From an uncultured Clostridia bacterium (GTDB lineage: Bacteria; Aerophobota; Aerophobia; Aerophobales; B3-G15), in contig CAYZYX010000002.1 of NCBI GenBank assembly GCA_964482715.1, positions 10,816-74,815 on the forward strand: 64,000 nucleotides of DNA, given 5' to 3'. The position numbers and the translations under genes are program-made. Positions 31,265 to 62,808 of the stretch are shown here, one piece after another. The notes below the pieces were generated by a model. The model did not search any database, was not told the origin of the DNA, and saw only the letters and a list, made by a program, of their open reading frames with translations. Every line of letters begins with the position of its first letter. Within the stretch, counting starts at the first letter, position 1.

Positions 31265-32842
31265 CTAAAAGTACATTTTTTCAGCTACCAGATAAACAAA
31301 GTCCTTTTCTCTCTCGTTGGGCTTAATGTGTTCTACTTTCCTGGCTATAAGTTCGGCATCCTTTCTTTTATCCTTAGATAAAAGCATTTGCCTTGCTCCA
31401 GCTAAAGCTCCATTACCAATTTTGACTATTTTATCCTTTGCGTTTGGCAAAAGACCTATTGTTATAGCATTTTCTGAATTAATAAAATTTCCAAAAGCCC
31501 CAGAAAGATAGATCTTGCCAATATCTTCAAGACCAACTCCGTAATATTTCATAAGGAGATCTTGATCCACTCTTAGACCAGCTTTTGCGGTTATGAGTTG
31601 GTAGATATCCTGTTGAGATATACTTATATCTTTAGTAATAAAAAAATCTTCTTTTAACTTTGCCTTTTTACTCATTATACCATTCTTCAGTAATTCGCTC
31701 AGAAGGTCTATCAAACCAGAACCACATATGCCTATAGGGGGTTTACCGCCAATAGTCTCGTACTTAACCTCGCCATTTAAAATTTTTACATTTTTTATTG
31801 CTCCCTCCACCGCTCCGACACCGCATTTTACAGTAGCTCCTTCATAAGCTCCTCCAGCAGCACAGGAAGCACTCATAATCCTGTATTTATTACCAATAAC
31901 CACCTCTCCATTAGTTCCAATGTCTATGATCATTGATGGGACTTCATTTTTGTATATCCCGGTAGTAATAATATTGGCCAGAGCATCTGCTCCAGCATGA
32001 CCACCGATTAGAGGTGCACCATAAACATTTGCCCCTGGATTTATTATTAAACCCATCTCCTCGGCCCTTCTATTTACAGCCCCGGGTTCTAAAGGCTCAA
32101 AAGGAATTACTCCCAGTGAAGAAACATCAATTCCAAAAAAGATATTGCGCATTGTAGGATTCCCGACCACCACTACTTCATATATACACTGGAGAATATC
32201 TTCTTTCTGACCGGCAAAGTTTTTTAATTCTTGATTTATTCCATCAATTATCACTTTCTGTAATTGCCTCAGCCCATTTTTATTTCTCATTGTGTAATCA
32301 ATGCGTGAGATAACGTCGTCTCCAAACAAACTCTGAGGATTCTTGTCAGCCAGAGTAGCTATTATTTTTCCTGACTGAAGGTCAACGATCTGAGATACCA
32401 GGGTAGTGGTCCCCACATCTATAGCAAGTCCATAAATTTTTCCCCTAAATTTGTCAATTTGTTTATCTTGGTGAAATACTTTACCATTTTTTTCATAAAC
32501 CAGAGGATTTAAGCTTACTCTATCTTTTAGACTTCGAGAAAGAATACTATACTTACCCGGACTTTTAATAAAGACACGAATACTTCCCGATCCACTAATT
32601 TTTGCCTGGCAGGCAAGCCTTTCATCTTCGCTTAAATTAAATTTTTTTTCCGCAACAGTTTTTGGGGATAATAGATATCTCTCACCTTCTATTCTCACTA
32701 TACATCTGCCACAAAGACCCTGCCCTCCACATTCAGACGGTATCTGTACTCCCAGTTTTCTGGCAACCTCCAGAATAGTTCCCTGGTTGAATTCAATTCC
32801 TTCTCTTCCCTTTTTAAACTGCGGAAAAAAAATAATTGCCAT
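31265..32842 (-). CDS. Second RACo-like protein ([2Fe-2S] ferredoxin domain plus ASKHA/DUF4445 ATPase domain)
   Basis: 525 aa. N-terminal ECGGQGLCGRC [2Fe-2S] motif. Same architecture as the gene at 17698..19605, but the two sequences are diverged. Confidence 0.65.
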   Translation of the reverse strand: MAIIFFPQFKKGREGIEFNQGTILEVARKLGVQIPSECGGQGLCGRCIVRIEGERYLLSPKTVAEKKFNLSEDERLACQAKISGSGSIRVFIKSPGKYSILSRSLKDRVSLNPLVYEKNGKVFHQDKQIDKFRGKIYGLAIDVGTTTLVSQIVDLQSGKIIATLADKNPQSLFGDDVISRIDYTMRNKNGLRQLQKVIIDGINQELKNFAGQKEDILQCIYEVVVVGNPTMRNIFFGIDVSSLGVIPFEPLEPGAVNRRAEEMGLIINPGANVYGAPLIGGHAGADALANIITTGIYKNEVPSMIIDIGTNGEVVIGNKYRIMSASCAAGGAYEGATVKCGVGAVEGAIKNVKILNGEVKYETIGGKPPIGICGSGLIDLLSELLKNGIMSKKAKLKEDFFITKDISISQQDIYQLITAKAGLRVDQDLLMKYYGVGLEDIGKIYLSGAFGNFINSENAITIGLLPNAKDKIVKIGNGALAGARQMLLSKDKRKDAELIARKVEHIKPNEREKDFVYLVAEKMYF

Positions 32843-34302: not shown

Positions 34303-34779
34303 TTACTCAGGAAGACCCTTTATGACTTCCAGCGCATGGGGGATTGCCGGTAAAATTAATTCCAGACTTTCCTCCACTGCTTTTGGACTTCCTGGCAAAT
34401 TAATCACCAGGCTTTTTCCTCTAACACCAGCAATAGCACGAGAAAGTAAGGCATGAGGAGTTTTCTCAAATCCTTTTAATCTCATTATCTCACTAAAACC
34501 GGGTAAAATTTTTTCTATAACTTCCGCCGTAGCTTCGGGTGTAACATCTCTCGGGGAAAGACCTGTTCCCCCTGTAGTTAAAACCAAATCCACCTTTAAT
34601 TTATCTATCATATCCTTTATGTTTTGGGATATAACAGTTTTTTCGTCGGGCACAATCCTGTAGTCTATTACCTGTCCCAATTTTTTCACCATTTTATGAA
34701 TGAGTAGTCCGCTTAGGTCTTCTCTCTCTTTCTTAAATGACCTATCACTTACGGTAATTATGCCTATTTTTATCATCAA
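34303..34779 (-). CDS. mogA: Molybdenum cofactor biosynthesis protein MogA/MoaB family
   Basis: 158 aa with LVLTTGGTGLSPRDVTPEA, the MoCF-biosynthesis-domain signature. Confidence 0.8.
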   Translation of the reverse strand: MMIKIGIITVSDRSFKKEREDLSGLLIHKMVKKLGQVIDYRIVPDEKTVISQNIKDMIDKLKVDLVLTTGGTGLSPRDVTPEATAEVIEKILPGFSEIMRLKGFEKTPHALLSRAIAGVRGKSLVINLPGSPKAVEESLELILPAIPHALEVIKGLPE

Positions 34780-34783
34780 AATC

Positions 34784-35230
34784 TTACTCCTCTATCAACT
34801 CTATTTTGTCTCCTACCTGAATTTTTCCCTCTCTTACCACTTCGGCAAAAATTCCCCTTCGTGGCATGAGACAATCCCCGACCTGTTTATAAATGTTGCA
34901 GTCACTGTGACATTTTTTACCAATCTGAGTTATTCTGATCACAGCCTCCTTTCCTACCTTAAGGAGATCTCCAGGGTTTAAGGAAGAAAGATCTACATCA
35001 ACTGTAAGATTTTCCGCAAAATCTCCCGGTTGCAATTTTTGTAAAGATCGATTTCTCTGTAGAAATTCTTCCACACACCTCCAGCTCAAAAGGCTAACTT
35101 GACGATGCCAGAAACCGGCATGTGCATCTCCTAAGATACCATGGTTTTTTTTAAGGAACGCTTCTTTTACAGGCTTCTTGGACACACCTTTTTCCTTGCT
35201 GATATTTATGGATATTATTTTTCCTTTCAT
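34784..35230 (-). CDS. MOSC-domain protein (Moco sulfurase C-terminal-like)
   Basis: 148 aa, a beta-barrel-type sequence with a conserved Cys (KKCHSDC). Lies inside the Moco operon. Confidence 0.55.
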   Translation of the reverse strand: MKGKIISINISKEKGVSKKPVKEAFLKKNHGILGDAHAGFWHRQVSLLSWRCVEEFLQRNRSLQKLQPGDFAENLTVDVDLSSLNPGDLLKVGKEAVIRITQIGKKCHSDCNIYKQVGDCLMPRRGIFAEVVREGKIQVGDKIELIEE

Positions 35231-35272
35231 TTTGCCTGTCCTTAAATTGATCTTAGAGCTGTGCTATTTCAA

Positions 35273-35722
35273 TTATTGCTCTTCCCTCAAATAATCCCCA
35301 CTTTTTCCTCCTCTTTTTTTAATAAGCCGCACATCAGAAAGATACATCTCTTTATTGGTTGCCTTACACATATCATAAATGGTTAATGCAGCTACCATAA
35401 CTGCGGTTAAAGCTTCCATTTCAACTCCTGTTCTGTCGGTAGCCTTCACCTGGGCTTCAATTTCAATTTTGTTTTCCTTTAACTCAAAATTTACCTTGGC
35501 TCCTGTAATCTTTACGGGATGACAGAGAGGGATAATATACGGGGTTTTCTTTACGGCCAGAATTGCTGCTATTTGAGCGCAGCTTAACACATCGCCTTTG
35601 GGGAGTTTTCCCTCTTTTATAAGCTTCAAGGTTTCAGGGGATAAAATGACCTCACCTTTAGCTACCGCTTCCCTGAAGGTGGTGGGTTTTCCAGTGATCT
35701 CAATCATACTTATTTTATTCAA
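35273..35722 (-). CDS. moaC: Cyclic pyranopterin monophosphate synthase accessory protein MoaC
   Basis: 149 aa. The segments TDRTGVEMEALTAVMVAALTIYDMCKA are conserved MoaC blocks. Confidence 0.85.
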   Translation of the reverse strand: MNKISMIEITGKPTTFREAVAKGEVILSPETLKLIKEGKLPKGDVLSCAQIAAILAVKKTPYIIPLCHPVKITGAKVNFELKENKIEIEAQVKATDRTGVEMEALTAVMVAALTIYDMCKATNKEMYLSDVRLIKKRGGKSGDYLREEQ

Positions 35723-35723
35723 C

Positions 35724-36692
35724 TTAACCTCCTATTTGAAACATAAATTTACCTGTTTTATGAAATTTTTCCATTATGGATATATTTCCCGTCCTTTTTT
35801 CTTTCTTAAAACCAAGTGCCAGATCAAAAATTTTTTTGAGGTCAGCTTCATCGCAATTTTTATCACGAAGTACATTTTTAAGATCCAGTTCATAACTGGA
35901 AAGTAAACATGGTCTTAACTTTCCATCAAAAGTAAGGCGTAAACGGTTACATCTTTCACAAAATGAATGACTGATAAAGCTTATAAATCCGATAGGATTC
36001 CCCGATTCCTTAAGCTGGTAGTAAGTGGCTGGCCCATTACCGATAAAGGAAGTTGGTTCGAGTTTACCCCATTTTTTCTCTATCGTGCTCTTTACGTGAC
36101 TGTTGGGGATGTACCATCTTGTCCCACCTATACCATTTATAGGCATATGCTCTATAAAACGGATGACCAAAGAATTTTTTTGGGCAAACTCAACAAAATC
36201 AAGTATTTCATCATCATTTATTCCCTTGAGGATCACCACGTTTATCTTAATGGGGGTTAAGTTTGCTCTTCTGGCGGCTTCTATACCTCTTAAAACCTGT
36301 GGAAGACTATCACGTCCGGTTATCCGGGCAAATTTTCTTCTTTTTAGACTGCTCAGACTAACATTTACACGAGAGATACCTGACTCTTTAAGTTTCAAAG
36401 CCAGACTTTCCAGCTTCGTTCCATTGGTGGTAATACTTACCTCTCTTATACTTTTTATCCGAACAATCATCCTTGCTAATGTAGGTAGATCTTTTCTAAG
36501 CAAAGGTTCACCACCGGTCAATCTTACCTTTGTTATCCCCGAAAATCCTGCCAGGTTTACCAGCTTTTTTATTTCCTCAAAACTTAAAAGTTCGCTTTTA
36601 TCCCGAATTTTTACTCCCTTCCTGGGACGACAGTAAATACAGTTAAAATTACACATGTCAGTTAGCGAAATTCTGAGATAATCTACATTCAA
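35724..36692 (-). CDS. moaA: GTP 3',8-cyclase MoaA (radical SAM)
   Basis: CNFNCIYCRP radical-SAM CxxxCxxC motif at the N-terminus and the C-terminal second-cluster cysteines CERCNRLRLTFDGKLRPC. 322 aa. Confidence 0.9.
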   Translation of the reverse strand: MNVDYLRISLTDMCNFNCIYCRPRKGVKIRDKSELLSFEEIKKLVNLAGFSGITKVRLTGGEPLLRKDLPTLARMIVRIKSIREVSITTNGTKLESLALKLKESGISRVNVSLSSLKRRKFARITGRDSLPQVLRGIEAARRANLTPIKINVVILKGINDDEILDFVEFAQKNSLVIRFIEHMPINGIGGTRWYIPNSHVKSTIEKKWGKLEPTSFIGNGPATYYQLKESGNPIGFISFISHSFCERCNRLRLTFDGKLRPCLLSSYELDLKNVLRDKNCDEADLKKIFDLALGFKKEKRTGNISIMEKFHKTGKFMFQIGG

Positions 36693-37900
36693 CCTAAAAC
36701 CTCCACCACAACTTCATCTCCGGCCCTCAACTTTTTCACATTTTCAGCCATCACAACTATGCCATTAGCCCATAGCATGGATTTTAATACTCCAGATTTC
36801 TGTGAGGGTGCGGGAATAGCCCAGTATTTTCCATCCTCTTCAACCAGCCTCACCCTTATAAAATTTTTTCTCCCGGAACTGTTTTTAACTTCTTCTTTCA
36901 AAATGGCCTTTATTTTGAACTTTTTCTTATACTCCTTGTGCCCCAGCATCTTAAAAATAGCTGGCTTTACCAGATTTTCAAAGTTCATCATGGAAGAGAC
37001 CGGATATCCGGGAAGTCCAAACACAAGTTTATTTCCTTTAATTCCAAAGAGGGTGGGTTTACCAGGCTTTGTGGCCACTTTCCAGAAAAGTATTTTCACT
37101 CCTGCCTCTTCCAGGACCTGTTTAACCAGGTCATATTTTCCTTCAGATACACCCCCGGATAAGAGTAAAATATCGCATGAAGAAACTGCCTTCTGTACCA
37201 CAGATAAAAGTTCTTCCGGGTCATCCCTGACAATACCTATCCTTTGAGGTTCACCTCCACTTGCTCTCACCTGAGAAAAAAGAGCAAAACTATTGCTATC
37301 ATAAATTTTACCTATCTCCAGCTTTTCACCCGGTTCTAAAACTTCATCACCTGTGGAGATGATAGCCACTCTGGGTTTTTGGGTTACCCTAACCTCTCTT
37401 CTGCCCAGAGCAGCAAGCATTCCCACTTCCTGAGGTCTTATCAGAGTTCCCCGAGAAAGAACTTTTTCTCCTTTTTTCACATCCTCACCAGCAAAACTCA
37501 CATTTTCTCCTTCTCTTATACACTTGAATATTTTTACCTTCTCCCCTTCACTATCCGTATCTTCCATCATCACTACTGCATCAGCCCCCTCGGGCATAGG
37601 CGCTCCCGTCATGATTCTAATTGCTTGACCGGGACGAACTTTAGATTCGATTCCACCTCCTGCGGCAAGCTCACCTGCAACCTTTAAAATTACAGGTTTA
37701 GTTTTTGAGGCGGAAATTGTATCTCGTGCCATTATCGCATATCCATCCATAGCTGCCCGATGAAAAGCTGGAATATCAAATTCACCCCAAATGTCCTCCG
37801 CTAAAACTCTTCCCGGGGAGGAAAGTAAATCAACTTTCTCATCAGGTAAAGTTAAAGCTTGCCGAAGAACAATTTCCAGGGCCTCTTCTAAAGGGATCAT
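36689..37900 (-). CDS. moeA: Molybdopterin molybdenumtransferase MoeA
   Basis: 403 aa with MoeA N-terminal, MoCF-biosynthesis and C-terminal domains (DIPAFHRAAMDGYA ... GGVSEG). Confidence 0.85.
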   Translation of the reverse strand: MIPLEEALEIVLRQALTLPDEKVDLLSSPGRVLAEDIWGEFDIPAFHRAAMDGYAIMARDTISASKTKPVILKVAGELAAGGGIESKVRPGQAIRIMTGAPMPEGADAVVMMEDTDSEGEKVKIFKCIREGENVSFAGEDVKKGEKVLSRGTLIRPQEVGMLAALGRREVRVTQKPRVAIISTGDEVLEPGEKLEIGKIYDSNSFALFSQVRASGGEPQRIGIVRDDPEELLSVVQKAVSSCDILLLSGGVSEGKYDLVKQVLEEAGVKILFWKVATKPGKPTLFGIKGNKLVFGLPGYPVSSMMNFENLVKPAIFKMLGHKEYKKKFKIKAILKEEVKNSSGRKNFIRVRLVEEDGKYWAIPAPSQKSGVLKSMLWANGIVVMAENVKKLRAGDEVVVEVLG

Positions 37901-49635: not shown

Positions 49636-49833
49636 CTACTCTTCTTCATACTGGATTGCCTCAGTTGGACACTCCTCTGCAGCTTCTTTAATTTCATCTT
49701 CAAATTCGTTGAAATCTGCATCCTCTTTAACCGATGCCACATCGTTTACCTCAAAGACCTCGGGACAGGTATCCTCACAAAGTCCACAGCCTGTGCAAGC
49801 ATCCTCATCGATCCAAACTTCAGTGATGGCCAT
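49636..49833 (-). CDS. fdx: Small single-cluster ferredoxin, copy 2
   Basis: 65 aa. Identical to copy 1 over the first 56 residues and differing only in the last 9 (…EECPTEAIQYEEE). Confidence 0.8.
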   Translation of the reverse strand: MAITEVWIDEDACTGCGLCEDTCPEVFEVNDVASVKEDADFNEFEDEIKEAAEECPTEAIQYEEE

Positions 49834-52730: not shown

Positions 52731-54488
52731 GTGCAAGTGAGCGAAAAACTAATTTGTAAGGTAGATTTACACGTTCATTCTCAATATTCCGAAATTGAAG
52801 GAGGAATTTTAAAAAAGATAACCCATTCCGAATCTTATACTCCACCTCAGGAAGTGTACAAAATAGCCAAAAAAAGAGGAATGAATTTTGTTACCATCAC
52901 CGACCATAACTCCATTCGGGGGGCTTTAGAAATTGCCCATCACGATGATGTCTTCATCAGTGAAGAGGTAACAGTAACATTTCCCGAAGATAAGTGTGAA
53001 ATTCATGTTGTTACTCTTAATATCAATGAGTATCACCATCAGAATATAAGTAAGTTAAGGCATAATATTTACGATTTAGTGGATTATCTCAATTCAAACC
53101 AGATTGCTCATTTTGTGGCTCATCCTTTCTCTTCAGTCAATGGAAAACTGAGAAAAGAGCACTGGGAAAAAATGCTTCTTCTTTTTGATGTATTTGAAGT
53201 CAGAAACGGGGTTCAGCGAGAAAAAGACAATTTACTTCTGGAAAAAATTCTAAAAGGTCTTACAGCTGAAAAAATTCACCAGTTAATCGATAAGTATAAA
53301 ATCTATCCCTTATCTCAAACTCCATGGAAAAAGTCAATGGTAGGGGGTTCGGATGACCATGGAGGATTATACATAGGAAAAACCTATACTGTGGGAAGGG
53401 GACCAGGCCTTGCGGATTTTCTTGAGTCTATTAGAAGAGGTGAAACTAAAGCTGAAGGAAAGAGTGGGACTTTTCATACCGTGGGACACAGTATTTATGC
53501 CACAGGATACAAATTTTACAAATACAGATTAAAAAAGCGAAAGCTCTTTAAATTTATTGATAAATTCGTGACTGACGAAATAAAAGGAAAAATTCTGGAA
53601 AAGGCATTTTTTAAAAATGGTAGTAAACTATCCTCTATCATGCCAAAAGGATTTTTAATTTCGTTTTTCATAAAAAAGTTTTCCAAAAAAATGCCCTTCC
53701 TTTACACCCTGAGAACCATGGGCAAGATAAACAAAAATCTCCCTCTTTATGCAGCTCTTTCTCCTTATCTTTTCGGGCTTGCTTATCAAAACAAGGATAG
53801 AAACTTAACCTGGGAGGTAAAAAAGTACTATCTGGATCAACCGGACCCTTTAAAAATAGCCATATTTACCGATATTTTGGAAAGAAAAGATAGCCTTCCT
53901 CACCACTTTGAATTTGACCAGACTTTATTTGAAAGAGAGAAAATAAAAATTATCTCCTGTAATAGAAAAATAAAATCGTCAAACGTCGGAATAAAAATTT
54001 TCCGGTCTGTGGCAGATTTTCCGTTTCCTATTTTCCCGGATATTCATCTTTATATACCTCCGTTACTTGAGATTCTATCTTACTGCGAAAAAGAAGATTT
54101 TGCCCTGATTCATGTTCTAACTCCTGGTCCCATGGGACTTGCTGGTATAATGGTATCTAAACTTCTAAAGATACCCCTTATAGGTACCTACTATATTGAT
54201 TTTTCTAAACACATACAGAAATTAATCACCAGTGAAAATTTTAAAAATCTGGTATGGAAGTATCTTGGATGGTACTACAGCCAGATGCACAAAATAATAG
54301 TTACCTCAGAGAAATACCTGCAAGAATTGAAAGAAAAAAACATATCACCAACCAAATTAAAATTTCTTCCCTGTGAGGGAATAGACCAATATATATGCGA
54401 GTCTTCCTCCTACCAGTTTCTAAAAGATTTACTCCATCAGGAAAACTTCTTTAAGTTAAGAGAGATATATAAAGAGATATATGTATGA
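52731..54488 (+). CDS. PHP-domain phosphoesterase fused to a GT-B (GT4-like) N-terminal-domain-like region
   Basis: N-terminus has VDLHVHSQYS ... TITDHN ... GGSDDHG PHP metal-binding blocks. The C-terminal 250 aa resemble a glycosyltransferase-4 N-domain without the catalytic C-domain. 585 aa. Confidence 0.5.
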   Translation: MQVSEKLICKVDLHVHSQYSEIEGGILKKITHSESYTPPQEVYKIAKKRGMNFVTITDHNSIRGALEIAHHDDVFISEEVTVTFPEDKCEIHVVTLNINEYHHQNISKLRHNIYDLVDYLNSNQIAHFVAHPFSSVNGKLRKEHWEKMLLLFDVFEVRNGVQREKDNLLLEKILKGLTAEKIHQLIDKYKIYPLSQTPWKKSMVGGSDDHGGLYIGKTYTVGRGPGLADFLESIRRGETKAEGKSGTFHTVGHSIYATGYKFYKYRLKKRKLFKFIDKFVTDEIKGKILEKAFFKNGSKLSSIMPKGFLISFFIKKFSKKMPFLYTLRTMGKINKNLPLYAALSPYLFGLAYQNKDRNLTWEVKKYYLDQPDPLKIAIFTDILERKDSLPHHFEFDQTLFEREKIKIISCNRKIKSSNVGIKIFRSVADFPFPIFPDIHLYIPPLLEILSYCEKEDFALIHVLTPGPMGLAGIMVSKLLKIPLIGTYYIDFSKHIQKLITSENFKNLVWKYLGWYYSQMHKIIVTSEKYLQELKEKNISPTKLKFLPCEGIDQYICESSSYQFLKDLLHQENFFKLREIYKEIYV

Positions 54489-54505
54489 TTTTTTAATTAT
54501 TGAAA

Positions 54506-55381
54506 TTAGATAAGCTCTGCCTTTTCCAGGATCTGAGGTACGTATTTATCCCATCCCAGTGGCATGATATGTACACCCTGACACATGTTTTTCAGTTCTT
54601 TTATTAGAGAAACCGCTATTTCAACACTTTTCCTGGGACGCTCCTCCTTAGAGGCTTTTGCCATGATGTTTATAAGTTCATCTGGAACAAACACTCCCGC
54701 AACATTAGCATTCATAAAACGGGCCATACCTGCCGATTTAAGGAGAACTATCCCTGCCAGGATAGGGACCTTAAGATGCTCTGTAGCACGGATAAATTGC
54801 TCAAATTTCTTCACATCATACACAGCTTGAGTTTGAAAAAATTCAGCTCCAGCTTCTACTTTATTTTCCATTTTTATTATTTGAGGTTCCAGAGGATCAG
54901 CACCCGGATTGACTACTGCTCCGAGACAGAAATCAGGTGTTCCATCCAGTTTGTTTCCAGCCATATCTTTTCCTTCCATTAAATCCCTGGCCGCTTTTAA
55001 AAGATTTACAGAGTCAAGGTCAAATACAGGTTTTGAGTCAGGGTGATCACCTAATACATTGTGGTCACCAGTGAGGCAGAGAATATTCTCTATCCCGAGA
55101 ACATAAGCGGAAAGAAGGTCAGACTGAAGGGCCAGTCTATTTCTATCTCTACAGGTTATCTGGAATACAGGCTCAAGATCCCTTTCTTTTAATAGACGAC
55201 AGACCGCAAGGGAGCCCAAACGCATCACTGAACTTTGAAGATCGGTAACATTTATGGCGTCCACTTTACCTTTTAGCATTTCTGCTTCTTCTAAAACGGG
55301 CTGTATATTTACCCCTTTAGGGGGACCAATTTCAGAAGTGACAACAAATTTACCTTTAGCAAAAAGCTCGGTAAGTTTCAT
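54506..55381 (-). CDS. metF: Methylenetetrahydrofolate reductase MetF (acetogen type)
   Basis: 291 aa MTHFR TIM barrel (TSEIGPPKG, CLTGDH), with a 4-nt overlap to metV. Confidence 0.85.
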   Translation of the reverse strand: MKLTELFAKGKFVVTSEIGPPKGVNIQPVLEEAEMLKGKVDAINVTDLQSSVMRLGSLAVCRLLKERDLEPVFQITCRDRNRLALQSDLLSAYVLGIENILCLTGDHNVLGDHPDSKPVFDLDSVNLLKAARDLMEGKDMAGNKLDGTPDFCLGAVVNPGADPLEPQIIKMENKVEAGAEFFQTQAVYDVKKFEQFIRATEHLKVPILAGIVLLKSAGMARFMNANVAGVFVPDELINIMAKASKEERPRKSVEIAVSLIKELKNMCQGVHIMPLGWDKYVPQILEKAELI

Positions 55382-56085
55382 TTTTCACCCCCTACCAGCT
55401 CTTCTTGTTCTTCCTCTGTTTCCAGTGCCCAGAAGATGGTTTTTTTCCTTTTTGCAGGAGGCTGCATTAGGTTAAAATTACGAGGAGCATTAATTTTTCG
55501 CAAATTATCAACTTTTCCAATTTCTTTAAGTCTGTTGTATATTAAAACCCAGACACAGTCCTTTTCCGGGTCAACCTCACATTTTCCTTTATCCGACCCC
55601 CCGCAACCACCATTTATTAGATTTTTTGGACAGTTGGCGTAGGGACATATCCCTCCAGTAAGGTATAGTTTGCAATCGCCACATTGAAGACACCTCTCTT
55701 CACCAGTCCAGACTCCGGAGAAGCCTCCCATATAAATCGTGTTATCCGCAGGATAAACTGGCAGGTCAATCATACTTGCCACTGCCTGGACTCCGATTCC
55801 ACAAGAACTTACCAGAATTGCTTCCGATTTTTCCAGAGATAAAAGGTATCTTTTTAATTTTAAACCTATGAGGACTTTGTTGCAGGCAAAATCTACCACA
55901 AAAGATCCAGTTATTTCTTTTCCTGTCTCTTTTAATTTATTCTCCATCTCCTGGAGTCCATTAGTACCCCCGGTCTTACAGGCTTCTGAACAGCCACCAC
56001 AGGCAATAAGAAAGATTTTCTGGTGAGATTTCAGGTAACTTAGTATTTCGTCCCATGGTTTTCTCTCGGAAACTAACATTTTCAT
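55378..56085 (-). CDS. metV: MetV, the Fe-S/zinc-ribbon partner subunit of MetF (MTHFR C-terminal-domain-like protein)
   Basis: 235 aa, Cys-rich (ACGGCSEACKTGG, CLQCGDCKLYLTGGICPYANCPKNLINGGCGG), directly upstream of metF as in Moorella metVF. Confidence 0.75.
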   Translation of the reverse strand: MKMLVSERKPWDEILSYLKSHQKIFLIACGGCSEACKTGGTNGLQEMENKLKETGKEITGSFVVDFACNKVLIGLKLKRYLLSLEKSEAILVSSCGIGVQAVASMIDLPVYPADNTIYMGGFSGVWTGEERCLQCGDCKLYLTGGICPYANCPKNLINGGCGGSDKGKCEVDPEKDCVWVLIYNRLKEIGKVDNLRKINAPRNFNLMQPPAKRKKTIFWALETEEEQEELVGGEK

Positions 56086-56098
56086 CCTCCATCAAAAA

Positions 56099-57658
56099 TT
56101 AACTCACCCTGAACCTGGCCAATTCCTTCTTTTTAGGAGTTATGAGATGAACGGCACAGGCAAGACAGGGGTCAAATGAACGCACACACCTTACTACTTC
56201 AAATGGGTTAGAAGAATCCTTAACTTTTAGTCCCATGAGAGCTTTCTCCAGAGGTCCCGGCTGGTCAGAGTCGTCCCGTGGAGAAATATTCCAGGTTGAA
56301 GGAACTACCAGCTGGTAGCTATCTATCACTTTGTCATTTATTTTTATCCAGTGTCCAAGAGCTCCTCGAGGGGCCTCGGTAATTCCCATTCCTTCTGCCT
56401 GATCAGGTAGAGAATATGGAGTATAAACTGGCTCGTCTACCTTAAGCTGGAGGACCCATTCAGCCATATGGTCTGCCACTATCTTAGCATCAAGCGCCCT
56501 TGCTATGTGCCGTCCAAGAATTGAAAAGAGGAGGTCAATTTTGCCTCCTATCTGAGAAAGAACACTCTCCACTGACCTGGTTACTTTCTCATTTTTTCCG
56601 TAAAAACTAACCACTATCCTAGCCAGGGGGCCTACTTCACTGGGCATGCCCTTGTAGCGTGGAGCTTTTATCCAGGAATACCCGTTTTTCTTTTTTTCAT
56701 CGATTTCTGTTTTTTCTAAAGCGGGATGAAGGCCGGAATATTCCTGAGAGTACCAGCTATACTTAAGCTGTTCATTAATCTGGCTAATATCAAGAGGCTC
56801 ATAAGAAGAGTCTGCCGAAACGAATCCCTGTAAAAATAGCCTTTTTCTCTTTGTCTGATCTATCTCAGCCGAGTCAAGATTAAAAGCTCCATAAGAGAGA
56901 AAATTGTTGTGAGAAGCACCCATGTGCAGGTGATCCTGGTAAAATCTTGCCAAAGCTATTGTGTCAGGAAGATAACAGTTATCTATGAAATCTCTTATCT
57001 CATTTAATCTCCATAAAAAAGAAACTATCTTATCAGAGGTTGGTCTGCTGGTAACTCCTCCTGCAACCATTCCCACGTTGTGGGGCATTTTTCCTCCAAA
57101 GATGGCCGAAATCTCGTGAGCTTTCTTCCTTATTTCCAGGGCCTTCATGTAGTGGGCTGCCAATTTTTCATTTGTCTCTTTGTCCAGTCGGTAGTCTCCT
57201 TCGTAGCGAGGGAGAAAAGGGTAAAGTTCTCCTCTACTTAAAAATTTTTTAAGAGAGAGAAGATCAGGGTTTTCGCCTTCATAATTAGACAAACAAGAAA
57301 AATCAACAAAATCAAGCAAGGAGAGATGGTAAAAATGAAGAATATGAGACTGTAGAAAATTTGCACCTAGAATGAGGTTACGGATAATCCTGGCGTTGTC
57401 AGGTATGGATTTATCCACACCAAAGGCATTATCAAGAGCAAAAACAGAAGCAGTAGCATGTGCAATGGGGCACACTCCACAGACACGCTGGGTTATCTGA
57501 CTTGCATCCCGGGGATCCCTTCCTTTTAATATAATTTCCCAACCTCGAAAAAGAGTCCCGGCAACTCGAGCATCTTTAACCTCTCCTTTTTCAACCATAA
57601 CTTCAACCTTAAGATGGCCTTCTATCCTGGTGACGGGGTCTATGATGATTCTTTCCAT
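56099..57658 (-). CDS. [NiFe]-hydrogenase large subunit (cytoplasmic, uptake type)
   Basis: L1 motif RVCGVCPIAH and L2 motif DPCLACAVH, followed by a 15-aa C-terminal extension (LITPKKKELARFRVS). The extension implies endoproteolytic maturation. 519 aa. Confidence 0.9.
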   Translation of the reverse strand: MERIIIDPVTRIEGHLKVEVMVEKGEVKDARVAGTLFRGWEIILKGRDPRDASQITQRVCGVCPIAHATASVFALDNAFGVDKSIPDNARIIRNLILGANFLQSHILHFYHLSLLDFVDFSCLSNYEGENPDLLSLKKFLSRGELYPFLPRYEGDYRLDKETNEKLAAHYMKALEIRKKAHEISAIFGGKMPHNVGMVAGGVTSRPTSDKIVSFLWRLNEIRDFIDNCYLPDTIALARFYQDHLHMGASHNNFLSYGAFNLDSAEIDQTKRKRLFLQGFVSADSSYEPLDISQINEQLKYSWYSQEYSGLHPALEKTEIDEKKKNGYSWIKAPRYKGMPSEVGPLARIVVSFYGKNEKVTRSVESVLSQIGGKIDLLFSILGRHIARALDAKIVADHMAEWVLQLKVDEPVYTPYSLPDQAEGMGITEAPRGALGHWIKINDKVIDSYQLVVPSTWNISPRDDSDQPGPLEKALMGLKVKDSSNPFEVVRCVRSFDPCLACAVHLITPKKKELARFRVS

Positions 57659-57659
57659 C

Positions 57660-58532
57660 CTAATTCTCCTTTCTGGTTTTAACTTTTAGCTTTTGCCATT
57701 CGGATATCTTACGATAAAATGGCCCGGATATATCTGGAAAAAGTGGTTCTGTGCAGCCAAGACAAGGTGATCCTGCTCCGATAACCCAGTTTACTCCATC
57801 GTTCCAGTGACGAATGGGACAGTCAGAGTAAGTGAAAGGACCTTTACACCCAAGCTCATAAAGACAGCCTTCTTCCCCAAAATTTCGAGCGAATTTTCCC
57901 TCATCAAAGTATGGTCTTCGAGGACAGTTTTCGTGAATTAGCTGCCCATAGATGAACTTGGGCCGATGTAGCTCATCCAGTTTTTCAGGTGAAGGTAGCC
58001 CATGGAGTATTATATCACTGACAGTTGCCACAAACCAGTCAGGGTGTGGAGGACATCCAGGAACATTGATGTAGGGAGTGGATAAATTTTCTTCTTCAAT
58101 TATTTCTCCGGCAGATTTTGCTCCTGTAGGATTTGGCCTTGCTGCAGGAATCCCTCCAAAAGCTGCGCAGTTACCAATAGCGATAACTGCTGTAGCATTT
58201 TTAGCCAGATCTTTAAATTGTGAGTAAACTGTGATGGGTTTTTCGTTTTCCTCTCCAACGGTAGCAAATATGCCTCCCCTGGCGGTAGGAATTGCCCCTT
58301 CTATCACCAGCAGATAACCGGACTCTCTTTTTTTATCCAGCATTACTTCTATGGCTAAATCGCCACTTGCTGCCATTAAGGTGGGATGAAAAAGAAGGCT
58401 GATGTGTTGACCGGGTACTATTTCATCCAGTAGGAGATTTCTAATCGTAGGACTTGCACAGTTCATAAGAGAAACCGAACAACCGGTGCACCCTGCTCCT
58501 TGAATCCAGATAACAGGTTGTTCTTTTATCAT
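57660..58532 (-). CDS. [NiFe]-hydrogenase small subunit without Tat signal peptide (three-cluster type)
   Basis: Starts MIKEQPVIWIQGAGCTGCS (the proximal cluster) with no twin-arginine leader. Also has GNCAAFGG, PGCPP, and medial/distal cluster ligands (HENCP ... CLYELGC ... CP ... CLGCTEP). 290 aa. Confidence 0.85.
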   Translation of the reverse strand: MIKEQPVIWIQGAGCTGCSVSLMNCASPTIRNLLLDEIVPGQHISLLFHPTLMAASGDLAIEVMLDKKRESGYLLVIEGAIPTARGGIFATVGEENEKPITVYSQFKDLAKNATAVIAIGNCAAFGGIPAARPNPTGAKSAGEIIEEENLSTPYINVPGCPPHPDWFVATVSDIILHGLPSPEKLDELHRPKFIYGQLIHENCPRRPYFDEGKFARNFGEEGCLYELGCKGPFTYSDCPIRHWNDGVNWVIGAGSPCLGCTEPLFPDISGPFYRKISEWQKLKVKTRKEN

Positions 58533-58572
58533 TAATCACCTCCATATCCTGATGCAAAGTATTTAGACAAAA

Positions 58573-58602
58573 AATATACCAAAACCTTTGATGTATGTCA
58601 AA
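58573..58602 (-). promoter_or_regulatory. Sigma-70-type promoter of the hydS-hydL-metV-metF operon
   Basis: Minus strand carries TTGACA, an 18-nt spacer and TATATT, about 45 nt upstream of the hydS start. Confidence 0.4.
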
Positions 58603-58837
58603 TTTACTCAGGTACAGGTAAAAAGTGTTCCAATGTCAGTACTTCTTTCTTGAACAAAATGATATTTACAAGAAAAGGAGAATTTGAGAGAACTTTTAAG
58701 AATAGGAGGTAAAAAGGCAGGTTCCCTTCCCTGGTGACATCGAGAAAAAAGTTTCTATGTATGAGTCTGTGGATATATAAAGTACCTGAAAAAAATTACG
58801 TTAAAGATTGATAAATTAAATTTTTCTTTTTATCCCA

Positions 58838-59572
58838 TCATCGTAAGGATAAAGGCACCTCCAAGCCGTGTGATTCCATAAGTGATTTATTACTTAGAAC
58901 CCCTCTTGGGTCCCCATTGGTTACTATTTTACCCTCATCCAGAAGAATCACTCTTGAGCAAATTTCAACAATTAATTCCAGATCATGACCGGCAATTATC
59001 TTGGTTATACTCAGATTTTTGAGAAACTCGATTAATTCTCTTCTTCCTCTGGGGTCCAGGCTGATGGTGGGTTCATCCAGAATTAAAATTTCCGGTTCCA
59101 TTGACAAAACAGTAGCTATGGAAATTTTTTTCTTTTCCCCAAGGCTCAAATGATGAGAGCATCTATCTTCATAACCTTCCATTCCAACCTGCTCTAATGC
59201 TTTTTTTACCTTTTCTTTTACCTTTTCTTTGGGATAACCAAAGTTGCTTGGACCAAAACCTACATCATCAAACACGGTAGGCATAAATAACTGGTCATCT
59301 GGCTCCTGAAAAACTATGGCTACTTTCTGTCTTATTTTTACCAGGTTTTCATCCTTGACTTCCATTCCCAGAACTTCAACTGACCCCTTTGTACCCCTGA
59401 GGATCCCGTTTAAGTGAAGAAGAAGAGTGGACTTACCGGCACCATTAGGCCCTATCAAGCCAACACACTCATCCCTATGGATATCCAGGTTTATCCCTTT
59501 AAGGGCTTTTGTCCCGTCAGGATAAATGTATTCAAGCTCTCTAATTTTTATAGCCTTTTTCATTTTATCCAC
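58838..59572 (-). CDS. nikO: ECF/ABC transporter ATP-binding protein (CbiO/NikO)
   Basis: Walker A GPNGAGKST, ABC signature LSLGEKKK, Walker B ILILDEPT. 244 aa. Confidence 0.85.
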   Translation of the reverse strand: MDKMKKAIKIRELEYIYPDGTKALKGINLDIHRDECVGLIGPNGAGKSTLLLHLNGILRGTKGSVEVLGMEVKDENLVKIRQKVAIVFQEPDDQLFMPTVFDDVGFGPSNFGYPKEKVKEKVKKALEQVGMEGYEDRCSHHLSLGEKKKISIATVLSMEPEILILDEPTISLDPRGRRELIEFLKNLSITKIIAGHDLELIVEICSRVILLDEGKIVTNGDPRGVLSNKSLMESHGLEVPLSLR

Positions 59573-60321
59573 CAGGGAAAATTCAACATCAGAGCAAAAG
59601 CTATGACCAAAGATGTCTTAATAAGATCCCTCAGATTAAGGGTAAATTCATCCAGGACGTTTAATCTGCCATTATATCCTCGAGAAAACATAGCGTCTCT
59701 TATGCGCTCTGTTCTTTCAAAACTACGAACTAATAACATCCCCGCTATACTCCCGATAGTCTTGAGAGTAGAAAAATCTGTCCTTTTTACCCATCCCCGA
59801 GAATTAGCGGCTATACTTATTCTTTTTTCCTCGTCCATAAAGAGAAAAATATACCGGTAGGTGAACATAAGAAGTTGAACAAGCTTATCTGGAACCTTTA
59901 TTTTTTCAAGAGCCTTTAGACTCAAATTAAATTTAGTTGTTCCCATCATAGGAAATACAAGTAAGGCCGCACTTACCGCTCTCAAACTTATCAAAAGACC
60001 AAGGTTAACCCCTTCCCGGGATACGCTTAAAAACGCGAGTCGCAATAAAAGGTCACCAGGAACGGTCAGAAAGAGCGTAACAGAAAGGACCAGAGTAAAT
60101 AGTAAAACCCATCTTAGATGAAGGAAAACAAAAGAAAAGGGAATTCTGCAAAGAAAAATCAGAGCAATTGCCAGACAAAGTCCAAGGAGAGCTCTTTGGA
60201 AATCACGGACAAGAGCAACCGAGAAAATCAAGATAGAAATGGAGATTATTTTTACCCTTGGATCCCAGGAATGTATAGGTGATTTAAGATGGGCAAATTT
60301 ATCAATCTCGGGTAGATGCAT
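59560..60321 (-). CDS. nikQ: ECF transporter transmembrane (T) component (CbiQ/NikQ)
   Basis: 253 aa with 5-6 transmembrane helices, overlapping the ATPase gene. Confidence 0.7.
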   Translation of the reverse strand: MHLPEIDKFAHLKSPIHSWDPRVKIISISILIFSVALVRDFQRALLGLCLAIALIFLCRIPFSFVFLHLRWVLLFTLVLSVTLFLTVPGDLLLRLAFLSVSREGVNLGLLISLRAVSAALLVFPMMGTTKFNLSLKALEKIKVPDKLVQLLMFTYRYIFLFMDEEKRISIAANSRGWVKRTDFSTLKTIGSIAGMLLVRSFERTERIRDAMFSRGYNGRLNVLDEFTLNLRDLIKTSLVIAFALMLNFPWWIK

Positions 60322-60324
60322 TAT

Positions 60325-60945
60325 TTAACCTCTCTTTTTGTTTGCAAAATATAGAATGATTCCTGTGATGCCAAAAATGTAGCCAATCCCACCTATAATT
60401 TCTGTAAAGGATATCCGCTTTTGCTGCATCTTAGCAAGTTCTCGCATGATAGGTTTTAATTTTTCGTCAAGAGAGTTATCAATGAGTGTCTTGATTTGAT
60501 CTAAATCAACCTGTGTTGCTTGTGCAGTTTTAAATTCCTCATATCCTGACCTGTTTGAATTGACTGTTAACGGGACATCTGATAACTCGTCTTTTGAAAG
60601 AGTGTATGAAGCTTTATGGCCCATTGTTGCAATAAGGACTATTCTTAAATCATCTTTCTTGGGAAGCTTAAAGTTAAACTGGCCATCTTTATCGGTTTTA
60701 CCCTCCAGTAGTTTATTGTTCTGACTATCGTATACTTCAACAATTCCACCTTTTACCTTTTTTCCATCAGGAAAATAGCTTTCAGTATATACCGTATCAC
60801 CCTCTACATAAGCAAAGATATTTACCTTGTGGGCAAAAACGGGCAGAAATGTTACGGTTAAAAGTAGACTTAAAATAACCAATCCTGTTACCGGCTTACA
60901 TAGGTCAGGAACTTTCCTTTTTAAAGTAAAATTATTTCTTTTCAT
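60325..60945 (-). CDS. NikL-like bitopic component of a Ni/Co ECF transporter (periplasmic beta-sandwich domain plus C-terminal TM helix)
   Basis: 206 aa with an N-terminal TM or signal, a Lys-rich beta-rich middle region and a C-terminal TM helix. Encoded between the nikK-like and nikQ genes. Confidence 0.4.
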   Translation of the reverse strand: MKRNNFTLKRKVPDLCKPVTGLVILSLLLTVTFLPVFAHKVNIFAYVEGDTVYTESYFPDGKKVKGGIVEVYDSQNNKLLEGKTDKDGQFNFKLPKKDDLRIVLIATMGHKASYTLSKDELSDVPLTVNSNRSGYEEFKTAQATQVDLDQIKTLIDNSLDEKLKPIMRELAKMQQKRISFTEIIGGIGYIFGITGIILYFANKKRG

Positions 60946-61024
60946 TGTTTTCTCCCTGAACTAATATCCGGCATATTTTTTCTTTGCTGGCAGGCAGGTT
61001 TAAACCCGCCTGTTCTCTCATTGA

Positions 61025-61819
61025 TTATTCTATATCTCTTGTCCGCACCCAGAAAACAGCACCGATCTCCACAGGCTTTTCTTTTCCATCAGATCCCTTT
61101 ATTGTCCATGAAGCCTGGTTTAAAGCGGCAAATCCCCACCAGCCAGCCTTAGGCATAGCATAAGAAAATACCCCGTTTTTATCAGCTTTGATTACCTGGG
61201 TAATATATGGAGCGGACGGAGGTCTTATCCTGCCATCTTTATTGTAATACTCCACCTCAATTTCGGCATAGGGTACAGGTTTTCCTTTGACCTTTACAAT
61301 CCCCGTGAATAAATTACCTGTCCACAACCCATATGGTCTTGTCAGAGGTACAATCTCGGTCTCCAGACCTATTTCCTCATCCCACTCCTGTTCCAGACCC
61401 AGTGCATTTACACATACTTTAGTGTAATGAATTATAAAGCAATCCTCTGCCGGTTCCCAGTAAGGCCTGGGCTCAACGTAAAAGATGTAGTCACCGGGTC
61501 TTTTTATTTTATATGTAGCCTGCCAATAAGTAAAGTCTTTTTTTTGACCGGGTCCTCTTCCTTTTTTTGCCTTAAGGAGGTTAAGCAAATCTACATTCTT
61601 CCCGCCAAATCTTACCCCAAATTTCACTGGTTTTTCCATTTCCATGTAATGACCTTCCATGGGGTGACAGAACTTTACATCTAAGGTTACGGTTTTACTC
61701 TCCTCCTGAGTGATTATATCATCAGAAGGTATTATCATACCAAAGTGCGCGCAAACTTTTGCCCCTGACCACCAAAAAAAACAAACCATAACTGTTACTA
61801 CTATACTGATTTTTCTCAT
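61025..61819 (-). CDS. NikK-like periplasmic component (DUF4198-type) of a Ni/Co ECF transporter
   Basis: 264 aa with a signal peptide, His-rich N-terminal segment ([10 protein letters not shown] ... [12 protein letters not shown]) and an aromatic-rich beta domain. Directly downstream of nikM. Confidence 0.45.
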
Positions 61820-61866
61820 CTCACCCTCCTATTGAAGTACTCTGGTATGTAATTTCAACCTTGCAG

Positions 61867-62478
61867 TCACCTGCCTCCTTCTTGCCGCAGGACCTCTGGT
61901 TTCACCTTCATCAAAAACGAAACAATAAAACCAGTTACAATTCCCTCAACAATCATTATCGGTATATGGGTTATGACTGCATATTTTGCTACACCTATGA
62001 ATTCACTTCCAGTGGTTATAAGAACTGATGCCAGAATGGCTGATCCAAGTAGAACACCAGAAATACCGGCCAGAATCCCAAAGGTAAAATGATTAGCTTT
62101 AAAGTTAAATTTATCTCTCAGGTTAAACAATCTGTAGGCTAAAAGAGCTGGAACTCCCATTACAATGGCGTTAACCCCGATAGTCGTTATTCCACCGTGC
62201 TGAAATAAAATAGCCTGCAGGACCAAGCCTACAAAAATAGAAACGAAAGCTGCAGGTCCAAGGATAACTCCCACCAGACCATTCAGAATGAGATGTACAC
62301 TGGTGGGGCCAAGAGGAACATGAATTAGAGAGGCAACAAAAAAAGCAGAGGTTATGACTGCCACTCTGGGCATATTATCTGCTTTTATCTTCCTGATGGT
62401 TGCTGCTATAATTGCAAGGGCAGCAGCATAACCTCCAGCACAAACAGGAGCTGACAGAACACCATCCGAAATATGCAT
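61867..62478 (-). CDS. nikM: Ni/Co ECF transporter substrate-specific component (NikM/CbiM)
   Basis: Starts MHISDGVLS, the conserved metal-binding N-terminus of CbiM/NikM, with 6 transmembrane helices. 203 aa. Confidence 0.8.
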   Translation of the reverse strand: MHISDGVLSAPVCAGGYAAALAIIAATIRKIKADNMPRVAVITSAFFVASLIHVPLGPTSVHLILNGLVGVILGPAAFVSIFVGLVLQAILFQHGGITTIGVNAIVMGVPALLAYRLFNLRDKFNFKANHFTFGILAGISGVLLGSAILASVLITTGSEFIGVAKYAVITHIPIMIVEGIVTGFIVSFLMKVKPEVLRQEGGR

Positions 62479-62808
62479 AAAATCTTCTCTCTTGATATTA
62501 TGTTACTTTTTTTTAAAAGGTAACACAAAATCCAAAAATGTCAAGTTTAAAAATTCAATTTTCTCGAGAGTAAAGATTTACCTTATTCAGCCAGAATCGA
62601 TGGATCCAGCCTATGTGAAAAGACGCTATGGAGATAAATTATCTCTGTGGGGAAAGGTAAGCAGTTAAAAAATACGGTAAGTATCCAGTAAAGGCATTTT
62701 AAGAATTTGAGTAAAAATCATAATTTCAGGATCTTTTATTTAATCAGGTTTTTTCTTTTTTAGCTTGGATTTTTTGTTGTTAGTGCTTACCCTTAAATTT
62801 TTGGAAGA

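Follow-up and report, generated by a model that had tools for sequence, protein, structure and literature searches.

We analysed a 64,000-nt stretch of DNA (the window) from contig CAYZYX010000002.1 of an uncultured bacterium affiliated with Aerophobota (assembly GCA_964482715.1), and found an operon, hydS-hydL-metV-metF, in which the two subunits of a [NiFe]-hydrogenase are encoded directly upstream of the two subunits of a methylenetetrahydrofolate reductase (MTHFR) of the MetVF type. Assignment of the DNA to Candidatus Aerophobetes is based on named relatives with 72-83% identity. Uncultured bacteria from ten or more phyla carried the same four-gene module. On the basis of the sequences, we consider it probable, with real room for doubt, that HydS, HydL, MetV and MetF form one soluble cytoplasmic complex that acts as an H2:methylene-tetrahydrofolate (methylene-THF) oxidoreductase. 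A first-pass annotation of this DNA had proposed such an enzyme, operating without Hdr, MvhD or RnfC subunits, and the proposal gains strong support from the linkage across phyla, from the parallel distances of MetV and the hydrogenase, and from the pathway clusters in which the module lies.

The hydrogenase-MetVF operon and its products

The four genes lay on the minus strand in the tight order described by the first-pass annotation. Families were assigned by Pfam and NCBIfam profile searches, and the features of the operon were as follows:

Promoter-like site, 58601..58573, minus strand: TTGACA, 17 nt, TATATT, with TG before the -10 element (extended type), approximately 40 nt upstream of the hydS ATG
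hydS, 58532..57660, minus strand: 290 aa, [NiFe]-hydrogenase small subunit (PF01058 and PF14720; TIGR00391 above cutoff)
hydL, 57658..56099, minus strand: 519 aa, [NiFe]-hydrogenase large subunit (PF00374, E 7e-154; NF033181, 707.7 bits against a cutoff of 600)
metV, 56085..55378, minus strand: 235 aa as the longest open reading frame (ORF), Fe-S/Zn subunit of MTHFR (PF12225, E 9.6e-33)
metF, 55381..54506, minus strand: 291 aa, flavin-binding catalytic subunit of MTHFR (PF02219, E 4.8e-38)

The promoter-like site, which is a match to the sigma-70 consensus only, agreed with it at 11 of 12 positions and was the sole minus-strand match in 54000-59200. No minus-strand promoter-like site was detected in the intergenic junctions from hydS to metF, and the few terminator-like matches in the operon were all located inside ORFs and did not exceed the shuffled expectation. 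The single upstream promoter postulated earlier was thus recovered as a promoter-like site, and the hydL-metV junction contained neither a terminator nor a promoter of its own. The hydS stop and the hydL ATG were separated by 1 nt, with AAGGAG upstream of the latter. The distance from the hydL stop was 13 nt to the first metV ATG (56085) and 19 nt to the second (56079); a GGAGG lay 6 nt upstream of the second ATG and abutted the first. Because of this spacing, and because a database protein (P0121; 233 aa, a gene-caller length) was 100% identical to the window MetV from the second ATG, the true start is more likely 56079 than 56085, which would give a product of 233 aa and a gap of 19 nt. Of the gaps initially reported (1, 13 and -4 nt), the first and last therefore stand, while 13 nt applies to the longest metV ORF and is likely to be 19 nt. 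The metV and metF genes overlapped by 4 nt (ATGA), so that their translation may be coupled. As the first-pass annotation had observed, genes for cytochrome b, Hdr, MvhD and Rnf were absent between and beside the four genes; the "fusion" of hydrogenase and MetVF of which it spoke holds as operon adjacency and not as a translational fusion.

The HydS ORF was already maximal. It begins MIKEQPVIWIQGAGCTGC, with 14 residues ahead of the first proximal-cluster Cys and no twin-arginine (RR) motif, and its C-terminus is short and hydrophilic, with no membrane anchor. The ligands of all three Fe-S clusters were located (proximal, C15/C18/C122/C160; distal, H200/C203/C223/C229; medial, C238/C257/C260), so the initial description of a three-cluster small subunit without a twin-arginine signal was borne out. 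These 11 ligands were invariant across 53 clade sequences. The position of a fourth medial ligand is occupied by Val250 in the window (Cys in 1CC1), and Cys was kept there in 24 of the 53 sequences. Since the window HydS has only three Cys ligands at this site, its medial cluster is probably [3Fe-4S], as in standard enzymes. The best solved match was the [NiFeSe] small subunit 1CC1_S (E 2.6e-79), and 4KL8 also scored approximately 1e-79.

The compact form of HydS was common to its relatives. The 120 best homologues were almost always 285-300 aa long, and a twin-arginine motif was found in 0 of 88 orthologues from the loci described below, even when the frame was read upstream to the previous stop. 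In a search of 1.84 billion cluster representatives, the clade collapsed to one representative (P0241), which aligned from residue 7, and most matches after it aligned only from residue ~35-55, corresponding to an N-terminal extension of 35-50 aa in the nearest outgroups. P0242, the one outgroup whose sequence was inspected, carried a TRRQIL motif for twin-arginine translocation (Tat) and a hydrophobic C-terminal tail. Judged from these sequences, the HydS clade forms a compact cytoplasmic branch next to group 1 enzymes that are exported by Tat, and the HydSL enzyme is predicted to be cytoplasmic. A clade-specific xPGxH insertion was also considered as a docking element for MetV, and was dropped after a similar insertion was seen in the Tat-bearing P0242.

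The 519-aa HydL contained the features attributed to it initially, namely the motifs RVCGVCPIAH (L1) and DPCLACAVH (L2, with Cys and not selenocysteine, Sec) and a C-terminal extension. This extension of 15 aa (LITPKKKELARFRVS) was kept in most orthologues and implies processing by an endopeptidase. Contigs sharing the left-end genes of the window continued with hycI, hypF, hypC, hypD, hypE, rex, rnfD and rnfG; with hycI and hypFCDE among these genes, the maturation machinery for a processed HydL appears to be at hand. In a sub-clade of nine loci (L022, L045, L055, L060, L061, L067, L068, L086 and L088), HydL ended exactly at the His of DPCxxCxxH. These tail-less loci had no hycI in the operon, and the module therefore apparently occurs in two forms, one protease-dependent and one protease-independent.

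The best solved matches of HydL were the periplasmic [NiFeSe] large subunits 5JSU and 2WPN (E ~1e-136), and the top solved matches of the two subunits taken together were 1CC1, 4KL8, 2WPN and 5JSU. In sequence matches to the structure database, the Mvh, Frh, Hox and Huc types were all distant from both subunits. By this measure, the hydrogenase is closest to the [NiFeSe]-like enzymes of group 1a. We file it as a cytoplasmic variant of group 1a and not as a regular member because two features of that group were lacking, Tat export and a respiratory partner: no cytochrome b, cytochrome c3 or HybA-type partner was found in the operon or among its conserved neighbours. Assignment to group 3c (Mvh) did not fit, as VhuA/MvhA models and Mvh/Frh/Hox structures matched HydL only over its N-terminal ~118 residues (1-118) and no MvhD was present. 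Nor did the sensory group 2b (HupUV/HoxBC), given the tail, the lack of a conserved kinase, and best matches in group 1. The L1 and L2 motifs, the tail and the 11 invariant Fe-S ligands indicate that the hydrogenase is catalytic and not degenerate.

MetV contained 12 invariant Cys residues (27, 30, 66, 93, 130, 133, 136, 145, 150, 159, 167 and 175), in agreement with the two [4Fe-4S] clusters and Zn predicted in the literature (PMC8760232); no solved homologue of MetV was found. The overlapping pair of metF (PF02219) and metV (PF12225) identifies the genes as those of a MetVF-type MTHFR, with the corresponding activity predicted. Of the genes that define the other MetVF types, rnfC2 (type III) was absent beside metVF from the 64-kb window and from the conserved neighbours. 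A complete rnfCDGEA set preceded the module in Latescibacterota and was specific to that lineage. Genes of type IV (hdrA/B/C and mvhD) were absent from the window, from ~10 kb of matching contigs to the left and from the conserved neighbourhood. The first-pass annotation had suggested searching the rest of the genome for hdrABC/mvhD and for a second metF; over the window and the ~10 kb leftward extension, neither was found.

Conservation of the module in uncultured bacteria

A scan of species-representative genomes, covering 185,579 species with a single genome each, confirmed at least 586 HydS relatives, in species-level genomes, among the first 600 pattern matches. The best 80 of these at least 586 relatives were inspected by taxon. 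All were metagenome-assembled genomes (MAGs), and they belonged to Aerophobetes, Latescibacterota, Dehalococcoidia, Anaerolineae, Actinomycetota, Desulfobacteraceae, Thermodesulfobacteriota, Pirellulales, Phycisphaerae and Poribacteria. The phyla with the module recognised via HydS were Aerophobetes, Latescibacterota, Chloroflexota, Actinomycetota, Desulfobacterota, Planctomycetota and Poribacteria.

Linkage was counted by tblastn in those loci of the species-representative genomes with HydS that had enough downstream DNA. The gene after hydL (or hydL-hycI) was metV at every locus that could be assessed (56 of 56), and metF lay within 1.5 kb after metV in 45 of 45; gene order was altered in four short contigs, with adjacency retained. 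Coming from independent genomes, these counts are far beyond chance, and the hydSL-metVF linkage is a trait of the family and not a local accident. Five long contigs with HydS homologues from different lineages likewise all carried hydS-hydL-(hycI)-metV-metF, with unrelated flanks. The module was also recovered when the search was seeded with MetV, in four contexts of its nearest non-Aerophobetes relatives: Omnitrophota (fchA-folD-hydSL-hycI-metVF), Elusimicrobia (fhs-hydSL-hycI-metVF), a Firmicutes MAG (hydL-metV-metF-hycI) and one metagenome contig.

All ORFs in 82 loci were clustered to find shared neighbour families. The only families present in all loci were hydS, hydL, metV and metF, and a HycI-type endopeptidase gene was located inside the operon in ~29 of them. 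No conserved family of Hdr, MvhD, RnfC2 or cytochrome b was found beside the module in these 82 loci, and no conserved carrier gene, kinase or response regulator. Lineage-specific neighbours included CooC, AcsC, AcsB, AcsE, NuoEF-like proteins, a 218-aa protein without a family assignment, fchA-folD and fhs. Between metV and metF, a second, divergent MetV paralogue (~225-248 aa, same Cys pattern) was encoded in some Dehalococcoidia (L033, L047, L061 and L063), and L035 contained a disrupted copy; a histidine kinase binding cyclic nucleotide monophosphates (cNMP) occupied this position in L029 and L032. In ~19 of the 82 loci, from Dehalococcoidales (L001, L004, L006, L092 and ~15 more), hydS was directly preceded by genes for EtfB, an EtfA that includes a ferredoxin domain, and a membrane protein of 655 aa in which two CCG domains occur. 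These resemble the sets of EtfAB and membrane Fe-S oxidoreductase of syntrophic fatty-acid oxidisers. They were rejected as a part of the system, being lineage-specific and absent in the window.

Pairwise distances of HydS and HydL were correlated with those of MetV (r = 0.82-0.84). The first-pass annotation had regarded the direct linkage of hydrogenase and MetVF as distinct. The linkage itself stands, but it is not unique to this genome, and it has been mentioned once for Bipolaricaulia: one sentence of a 2024 paper on Great Salt Lake sediment notes the adjacency and suggests the same idea independently (PMC11287216). The MetVF-adjacent hydrogenase of Bipolaricaulia was classed as group 1a by HydDB (PMC11287216).

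Proposed reaction and competing readings

The available account of MTHFR typology spans types I to IV only (PMC8760232), and no hydrogenase-linked type was found in literature searched from 2021 onward. Type II MetVF, known from C. ljungdahlii, C. formicoaceticum, T. kivui and E. callanderi (PMC8760232), consists of the same pair of MetF (flavin) and MetV (Fe-S, Zn), encoded by overlapping or adjacent ORFs, and has no dedicated input subunit, whereas HydSL-MetVF has a whole hydrogenase directly upstream in the operon. In MetVF reductases, the MetF flavin reduces methylene-THF and MetV, with two predicted [4Fe-4S] clusters and Zn, strongly stimulates MetF (Oppinger et al., PMC8760232); for type II, reduced ferredoxin is the donor in vitro, and the physiological donor is described as unresolved (PMC8760232). 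Types III (RnfC2-MetVF, Acetobacterium woodii) and IV (HdrCBA-MvhD-MetVF, Moorella thermoacetica and Sporomusa ovata) (PMC8760232) follow the same logic as that proposed here, with the gene or genes of an input module beside metVF feeding the Fe-S clusters of MetV. They take NADH via RnfC2 or HdrA, whereas HydSL-MetVF would take H2 via a [NiFe] hydrogenase. Modular MetVF inputs thus have precedent in types II-IV (PMC8760232). The first-pass annotation had listed the Hdr-MvhD and RnfC types as the known systems and had left out type II with ferredoxin (PMC8760232).

In the proposed complex, H2 would be split at the Ni-Fe site of HydL, and the three clusters of HydS (proximal, medial, distal) would then conduct the electrons onward. 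[quoted passage not shown] HydSL would therefore be an interchangeable electron-input module on a MetV adaptor, in the role of RnfC2 in type III or HdrCBA-MvhD in type IV, and we infer from the gene content that it represents a fifth kind of such module. [quoted passage not shown] Complex formation, the electron path, its direction and H2 cycling with Mbh are all our reading of the sequences. In line with a role in the pathway, the module was located within methyl-branch clusters or clusters for carbon monoxide dehydrogenase and acetyl-CoA synthase (CODH/ACS) in other lineages, and it shares the window with a CODH/ACS cluster here.

With E0' values of -414 mV for H2 and -200 mV for methylene-THF (deltaG0' ~ -41 kJ/mol; PMC9430772), the step from H2 to methylene-THF is exergonic and probably not itself energy-conserving. 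At 1 Pa H2 the driving force calculated by the Nernst equation shrinks to ~ -13 kJ/mol, so that direct, non-conserving coupling would be plausible in energy-poor sediments. The same overall reaction is known from S. ovata, whose membranes reduce methylene-THF with H2 (Kremp, Roth, Muller 2022, PMC9430772). There, the hydrogenase is periplasmic, Tat-exported and anchored by cytochrome b, and is linked via quinone and HdrCBA-MvhD to MetVF, with energy conserved chemiosmotically, whereas for HydSL-MetVF a soluble, cytoplasmic route that bypasses membrane and quinone is predicted. In MvhADG-HdrABC (group 3c), a cytoplasmic [NiFe] hydrogenase likewise feeds a partner reductase directly, but this hydrogenase belongs to another group, and HydSL-MetVF has neither an MvhD adaptor nor a bifurcating HdrA. 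The periplasmic group 1a [NiFe]/[NiFeSe] enzymes (Desulfomicrobium baculatum 1CC1; Desulfovibrio vulgaris Hildenborough 2WPN/5JSU) share with HydSL the heterodimer, L1/L2, three Fe-S clusters and the processing tail. The HydSL clade differs from them in lacking a Tat signal, a cytochrome c3/b partner and a membrane anchor, and in having metV-metF as partner genes; L2 of the window HydL has Cys in place of Sec.

Several points weigh against a four-subunit H2:methylene-THF oxidoreductase. The case for complex formation is one of gene linkage alone, and no HydS-MetV or HydL-MetV fusion was found in ~90 loci or in the 150 top-ranking representatives of 1.84 billion proteins (long matches examined as possible fusions were, where inspected, surface-repeat fusions or frameshifted calls). 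The distances of MetF followed those of the hydrogenase less closely (r = 0.57-0.60), which points to looser co-evolution. MetVF accepts reduced ferredoxin in vitro (PMC8760232), leaving room for a diffusible carrier. The expenditure of -41 kJ/mol without conservation looks wasteful in energy-limited anaerobes unless H2 is very low or cycled. Finally, an Hdr-MvhD set or a second metF may be located beyond the window and the additional ~10 kb.

The same complex could operate in the opposite direction, oxidising methyl-THF, either with the Wood-Ljungdahl pathway reversed or during oxidation of methyl groups or acetate, and passing H2 to a syntrophic partner, which we regard as unlikely, though less so than the readings that follow. 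[NiFeSe]-like group 1a enzymes, to which the closest solved relatives of both subunits belong, are good H2 producers. Many hosts (Dehalococcoidia, Aerophobetes and Desulfobacterota MAGs) come from sediments with low H2, and hosts are usually described as organoheterotrophs, in which the pathway could run either way (PMC6472368). In Dehalococcoidales, the module adjoins the EtfAB and membrane CCG Fe-S oxidoreductase genes typical of syntrophic oxidisers. Formation of H2 would, however, require H2 at or below ~1e-7 bar at equal substrate and product (Nernst, E0' -200 mV), and half of the clade, the window HydS among them, has only three Cys at the medial site, as standard uptake-type enzymes typically do. 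The module also lies beside biosynthetic-direction fhs, folD, acsE and CODH/ACS genes and a nickel importer, though these fit either direction.

It is rather improbable that two separate, merely co-regulated enzymes are encoded, with a soluble HydSL reducing a diffusible ferredoxin, flavodoxin or rubredoxin and MetVF acting as a type II reductase. Such an arrangement would agree with the partner-free activity of purified type II MetVF with reduced ferredoxin in vitro (PMC8760232) and with the lack of fusion proteins, and a small ferredoxin gene is present in the window (49636-49833). Against it, co-regulation alone rarely yields direct adjacency in 56 of 56 loci over ten phyla, with the unit intact even where hycI is placed between or after the genes, and no carrier gene was conserved beside the module. 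The distances of MetV follow those of the hydrogenase, and at environmental H2 levels electrons would have to go uphill from H2 to ferredoxin. Ferredoxin as the physiological donor is also disputed, on energetic grounds, by Oppinger et al. (PMC8760232).

Electron bifurcation, in which H2 would reduce methylene-THF (downhill) together with ferredoxin (uphill) in a four-subunit analogue of MvhADG-HdrABC or HdrABC-MvhD-MetVF, seems quite improbable. The gap of -41 kJ/mol (PMC9430772) would suffice to drive ferredoxin reduction, bifurcation here is a hypothesis of long standing (PMC8760232), some loci contain a second MetV paralogue, and the CODH/ACS encoded nearby needs ferredoxin. However, the conserved unit contained no HdrA-, NfnB-, EtfAB- or HydB-type bifurcating flavoprotein, which would leave the substrate-reducing flavin of MetF as the sole flavin. 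In the available accounts, purified C. ljungdahlii MetVF showed no bifurcation (PMC8760232), and S. ovata membranes supplied with H2 and methylene-THF showed no co-reduction of ferredoxin or NAD(P)+ (PMC9430772).

Sensory hydrogenases also lack Tat signals. A regulatory H2 sensor of the HupUV type controlling metVF expression, to which the histidine kinase in L029 and L032 and the tail-less sub-clade might point, is nevertheless very improbable, given the 15-aa tail of the window HydL, the HycI protease gene in the operons of many relatives, the similarity to group 1a, the absence of a conserved kinase or response regulator, and the lack of any reason why, in ten phyla, a sensor gene should precede that of its target enzyme with translation coupled; the first-pass annotation had named a sensor without C-terminal processing as one case that would overturn its proposal.

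An H2:methylene-THF oxidoreductase would bear on a long-standing question, as the identity of the MetVF donor and the conservation of energy at this exergonic step have been a problem of acetogen bioenergetics since the 1970s (PMC9430772, PMC8760232). If the reading is correct, a hydrogenase wired to MetVF would be a fifth, H2-driven type of input, and the four genes would provide a handle on the donor question. A bolder version, for which we see a small chance, is that HydSL-MetVF answers the donor problem across much of the uncultured anaerobic biosphere, either through an obligatory intracellular H2 cycle with Mbh/Mrp or Ech, or by itself bifurcating H2 electrons to methylene-THF and ferredoxin without an Hdr-type flavoprotein. 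With an obligatory cycle, reduced ferredoxin would yield H2 with ion export and the H2 would then reduce methylene-THF, which would make the methylene-THF step indirectly energy-conserving.

A second consequence concerns annotation. If the reading is correct, the clade would be a cytoplasmic branch of a hydrogenase group that by definition and in routine annotation is periplasmic and respiratory, and the HydS relatives in at least 586 species-level genomes include dominant sediment Dehalococcoidia. The Tat-less, MetVF-linked clade would receive the HydDB label of group 1a, so that calls of "group 1a respiratory uptake" in metagenome surveys probably misread it. Dong et al. 2019 interpret group 1a/1b hydrogenases as dehalorespiratory (PMC6472368); inferences of this kind may not hold for many sediment Chloroflexota. 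Many claims from metagenomes of "respiratory H2 uptake" or "hydrogenotrophic dehalorespiration" by group 1a enzymes may instead mean H2-driven or H2-recycling CO2 reduction, and models of H2 and carbon flow in subsurface sediments would change if such claims are misreadings. One of our loci, L029, corresponds to SOJQ01000086.1 of Dehalococcoidia E44_bin26, a MAG whose name is formed as in Dong et al. 2019 (PMC6472368). In the available literature on Chloroflexi, Actinobacteria, Acetothermia, NPL-UPA2 and Elusimicrobia, only Hdr/MvhD- or RnfC-linked MetVF, or none, is described. Our literature search, with subscription-only journals mostly outside its reach, returned no report on the lack of a signal peptide, on how widely the module is conserved, on the inserted HycI gene, on large subunits without a tail or on the biochemistry of the module.

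Genomic setting in the window

By gene content, the window is a Wood-Ljungdahl island, comprising cooC-cooS, a CooF-like ferredoxin, NuoE/F-like proteins, a 2Fe-2S/4Fe-4S protein, acsB, acsC, a corrinoid activator, cooC, acsD and acsE. Between cooS and acsB (23245-26954, minus strand), a CooF-like polyferredoxin, a NuoE-like 2Fe-2S protein, a 639-aa NuoF-like FMN/NAD(P)H subunit and a protein resembling the N-terminus of NuoG (2Fe-2S and 2x[4Fe-4S]) were encoded. NuoE/F-like genes also neighboured the module in ~10-12 Dehalococcoidia loci, and this set may be a pyridine-nucleotide/ferredoxin-linked module attached to CODH/ACS. Two genes for corrinoid reductive activases (RACo/AcsV-like) were present on the minus strand (17698-19605 and 31265-32842), one of them inside the acs cluster; the second, shorter one scored below the NCBIfam cutoff and adjoins a sulfite-exporter-like membrane protein. 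The other large cluster of the window was a hydrogenase operon:

Mbh/Mrp-type group 4 [NiFe] hydrogenase operon, 429-13859, minus strand: 13-plus genes, with NuoB/C/D/H-like, several antiporter-like, and Mnh/Mrp subunits

This operon, preceded by an AsrA/AsrB-like pair of Fe-S/FAD oxidoreductases and a 4Fe-4S protein, fits the "Mbh-Mrp-oxidoreductase" type, which is described in an Elusimicrobia study as being of obscure function. Its product may be the source of H2 in an internal cycle with HydSL-MetVF.

Upstream of hydS lay an importer operon of the energy-coupling factor (ECF) type, which we treat as associated context and not as a part of the enzyme:

Importer operon, 58838..62478, minus strand: ECF type, consisting of the five genes below
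cbiM, 61867-62478, minus strand: NF004905 above cutoff
DUF4198 protein gene, 61025-61819, minus strand: DUF4198
nikL-family gene, 60325-60945, minus strand: NF058648, 181 bits against a cutoff of 100
cbiQ, 59560-60321, minus strand: TIGR02454 above cutoff
cbiO, 58838-59572, minus strand: last gene of the CbiM/DUF4198/NikL/CbiQ/CbiO set

The spacer between this operon and hydS was 305 nt and carried hydS's own promoter-like site. The first-pass annotation had placed a Nik-type nickel importer immediately upstream; an importer does adjoin, but it is of the ECF CbiM/DUF4198/NikL/CbiQ/CbiO type and not NikABCDE. In a Chloroflexota genome, cbiM, ABC ATPase, Fur and Ni_insertion (PF01969) genes were also located upstream of the module. 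The palindrome GTGTTAC-N13-GTAACA (62501-62526, minus strand) occurred once in the window, against 0.01 expected by chance, and overlapped the cbiM promoter region. We take it to resemble the NikR operator consensus, which reportedly derives from Rodionov et al. 2006. Neither the leader of the hydS operon nor the region before cbiM contained an RNA element detectable with Rfam, and no cobalamin riboswitch preceded cbiM. The NikR-like palindrome and the lack of a cobalamin riboswitch before cbiM favour nickel over cobalt as the imported metal.

Two further features were recorded:

PHP and GT4 protein gene, 52731-54488, plus strand: 585 aa, with an N-terminal PHP phosphoesterase and a C-terminal GT4 glycosyltransferase; convergent with the operon and ending 17 nt past metF
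Moco (molybdenum/tungsten cofactor) riboswitch RF01055, 38103-38222, minus strand: 82.8 bits, upstream of a moeA-moaA-moaC-mogA-like operon (34303-37900)

Other Aerophobetes contigs carried a GT4 protein of 572-573 aa in the same place as the PHP and GT4 protein, with GT4 domains as the only ones recorded.

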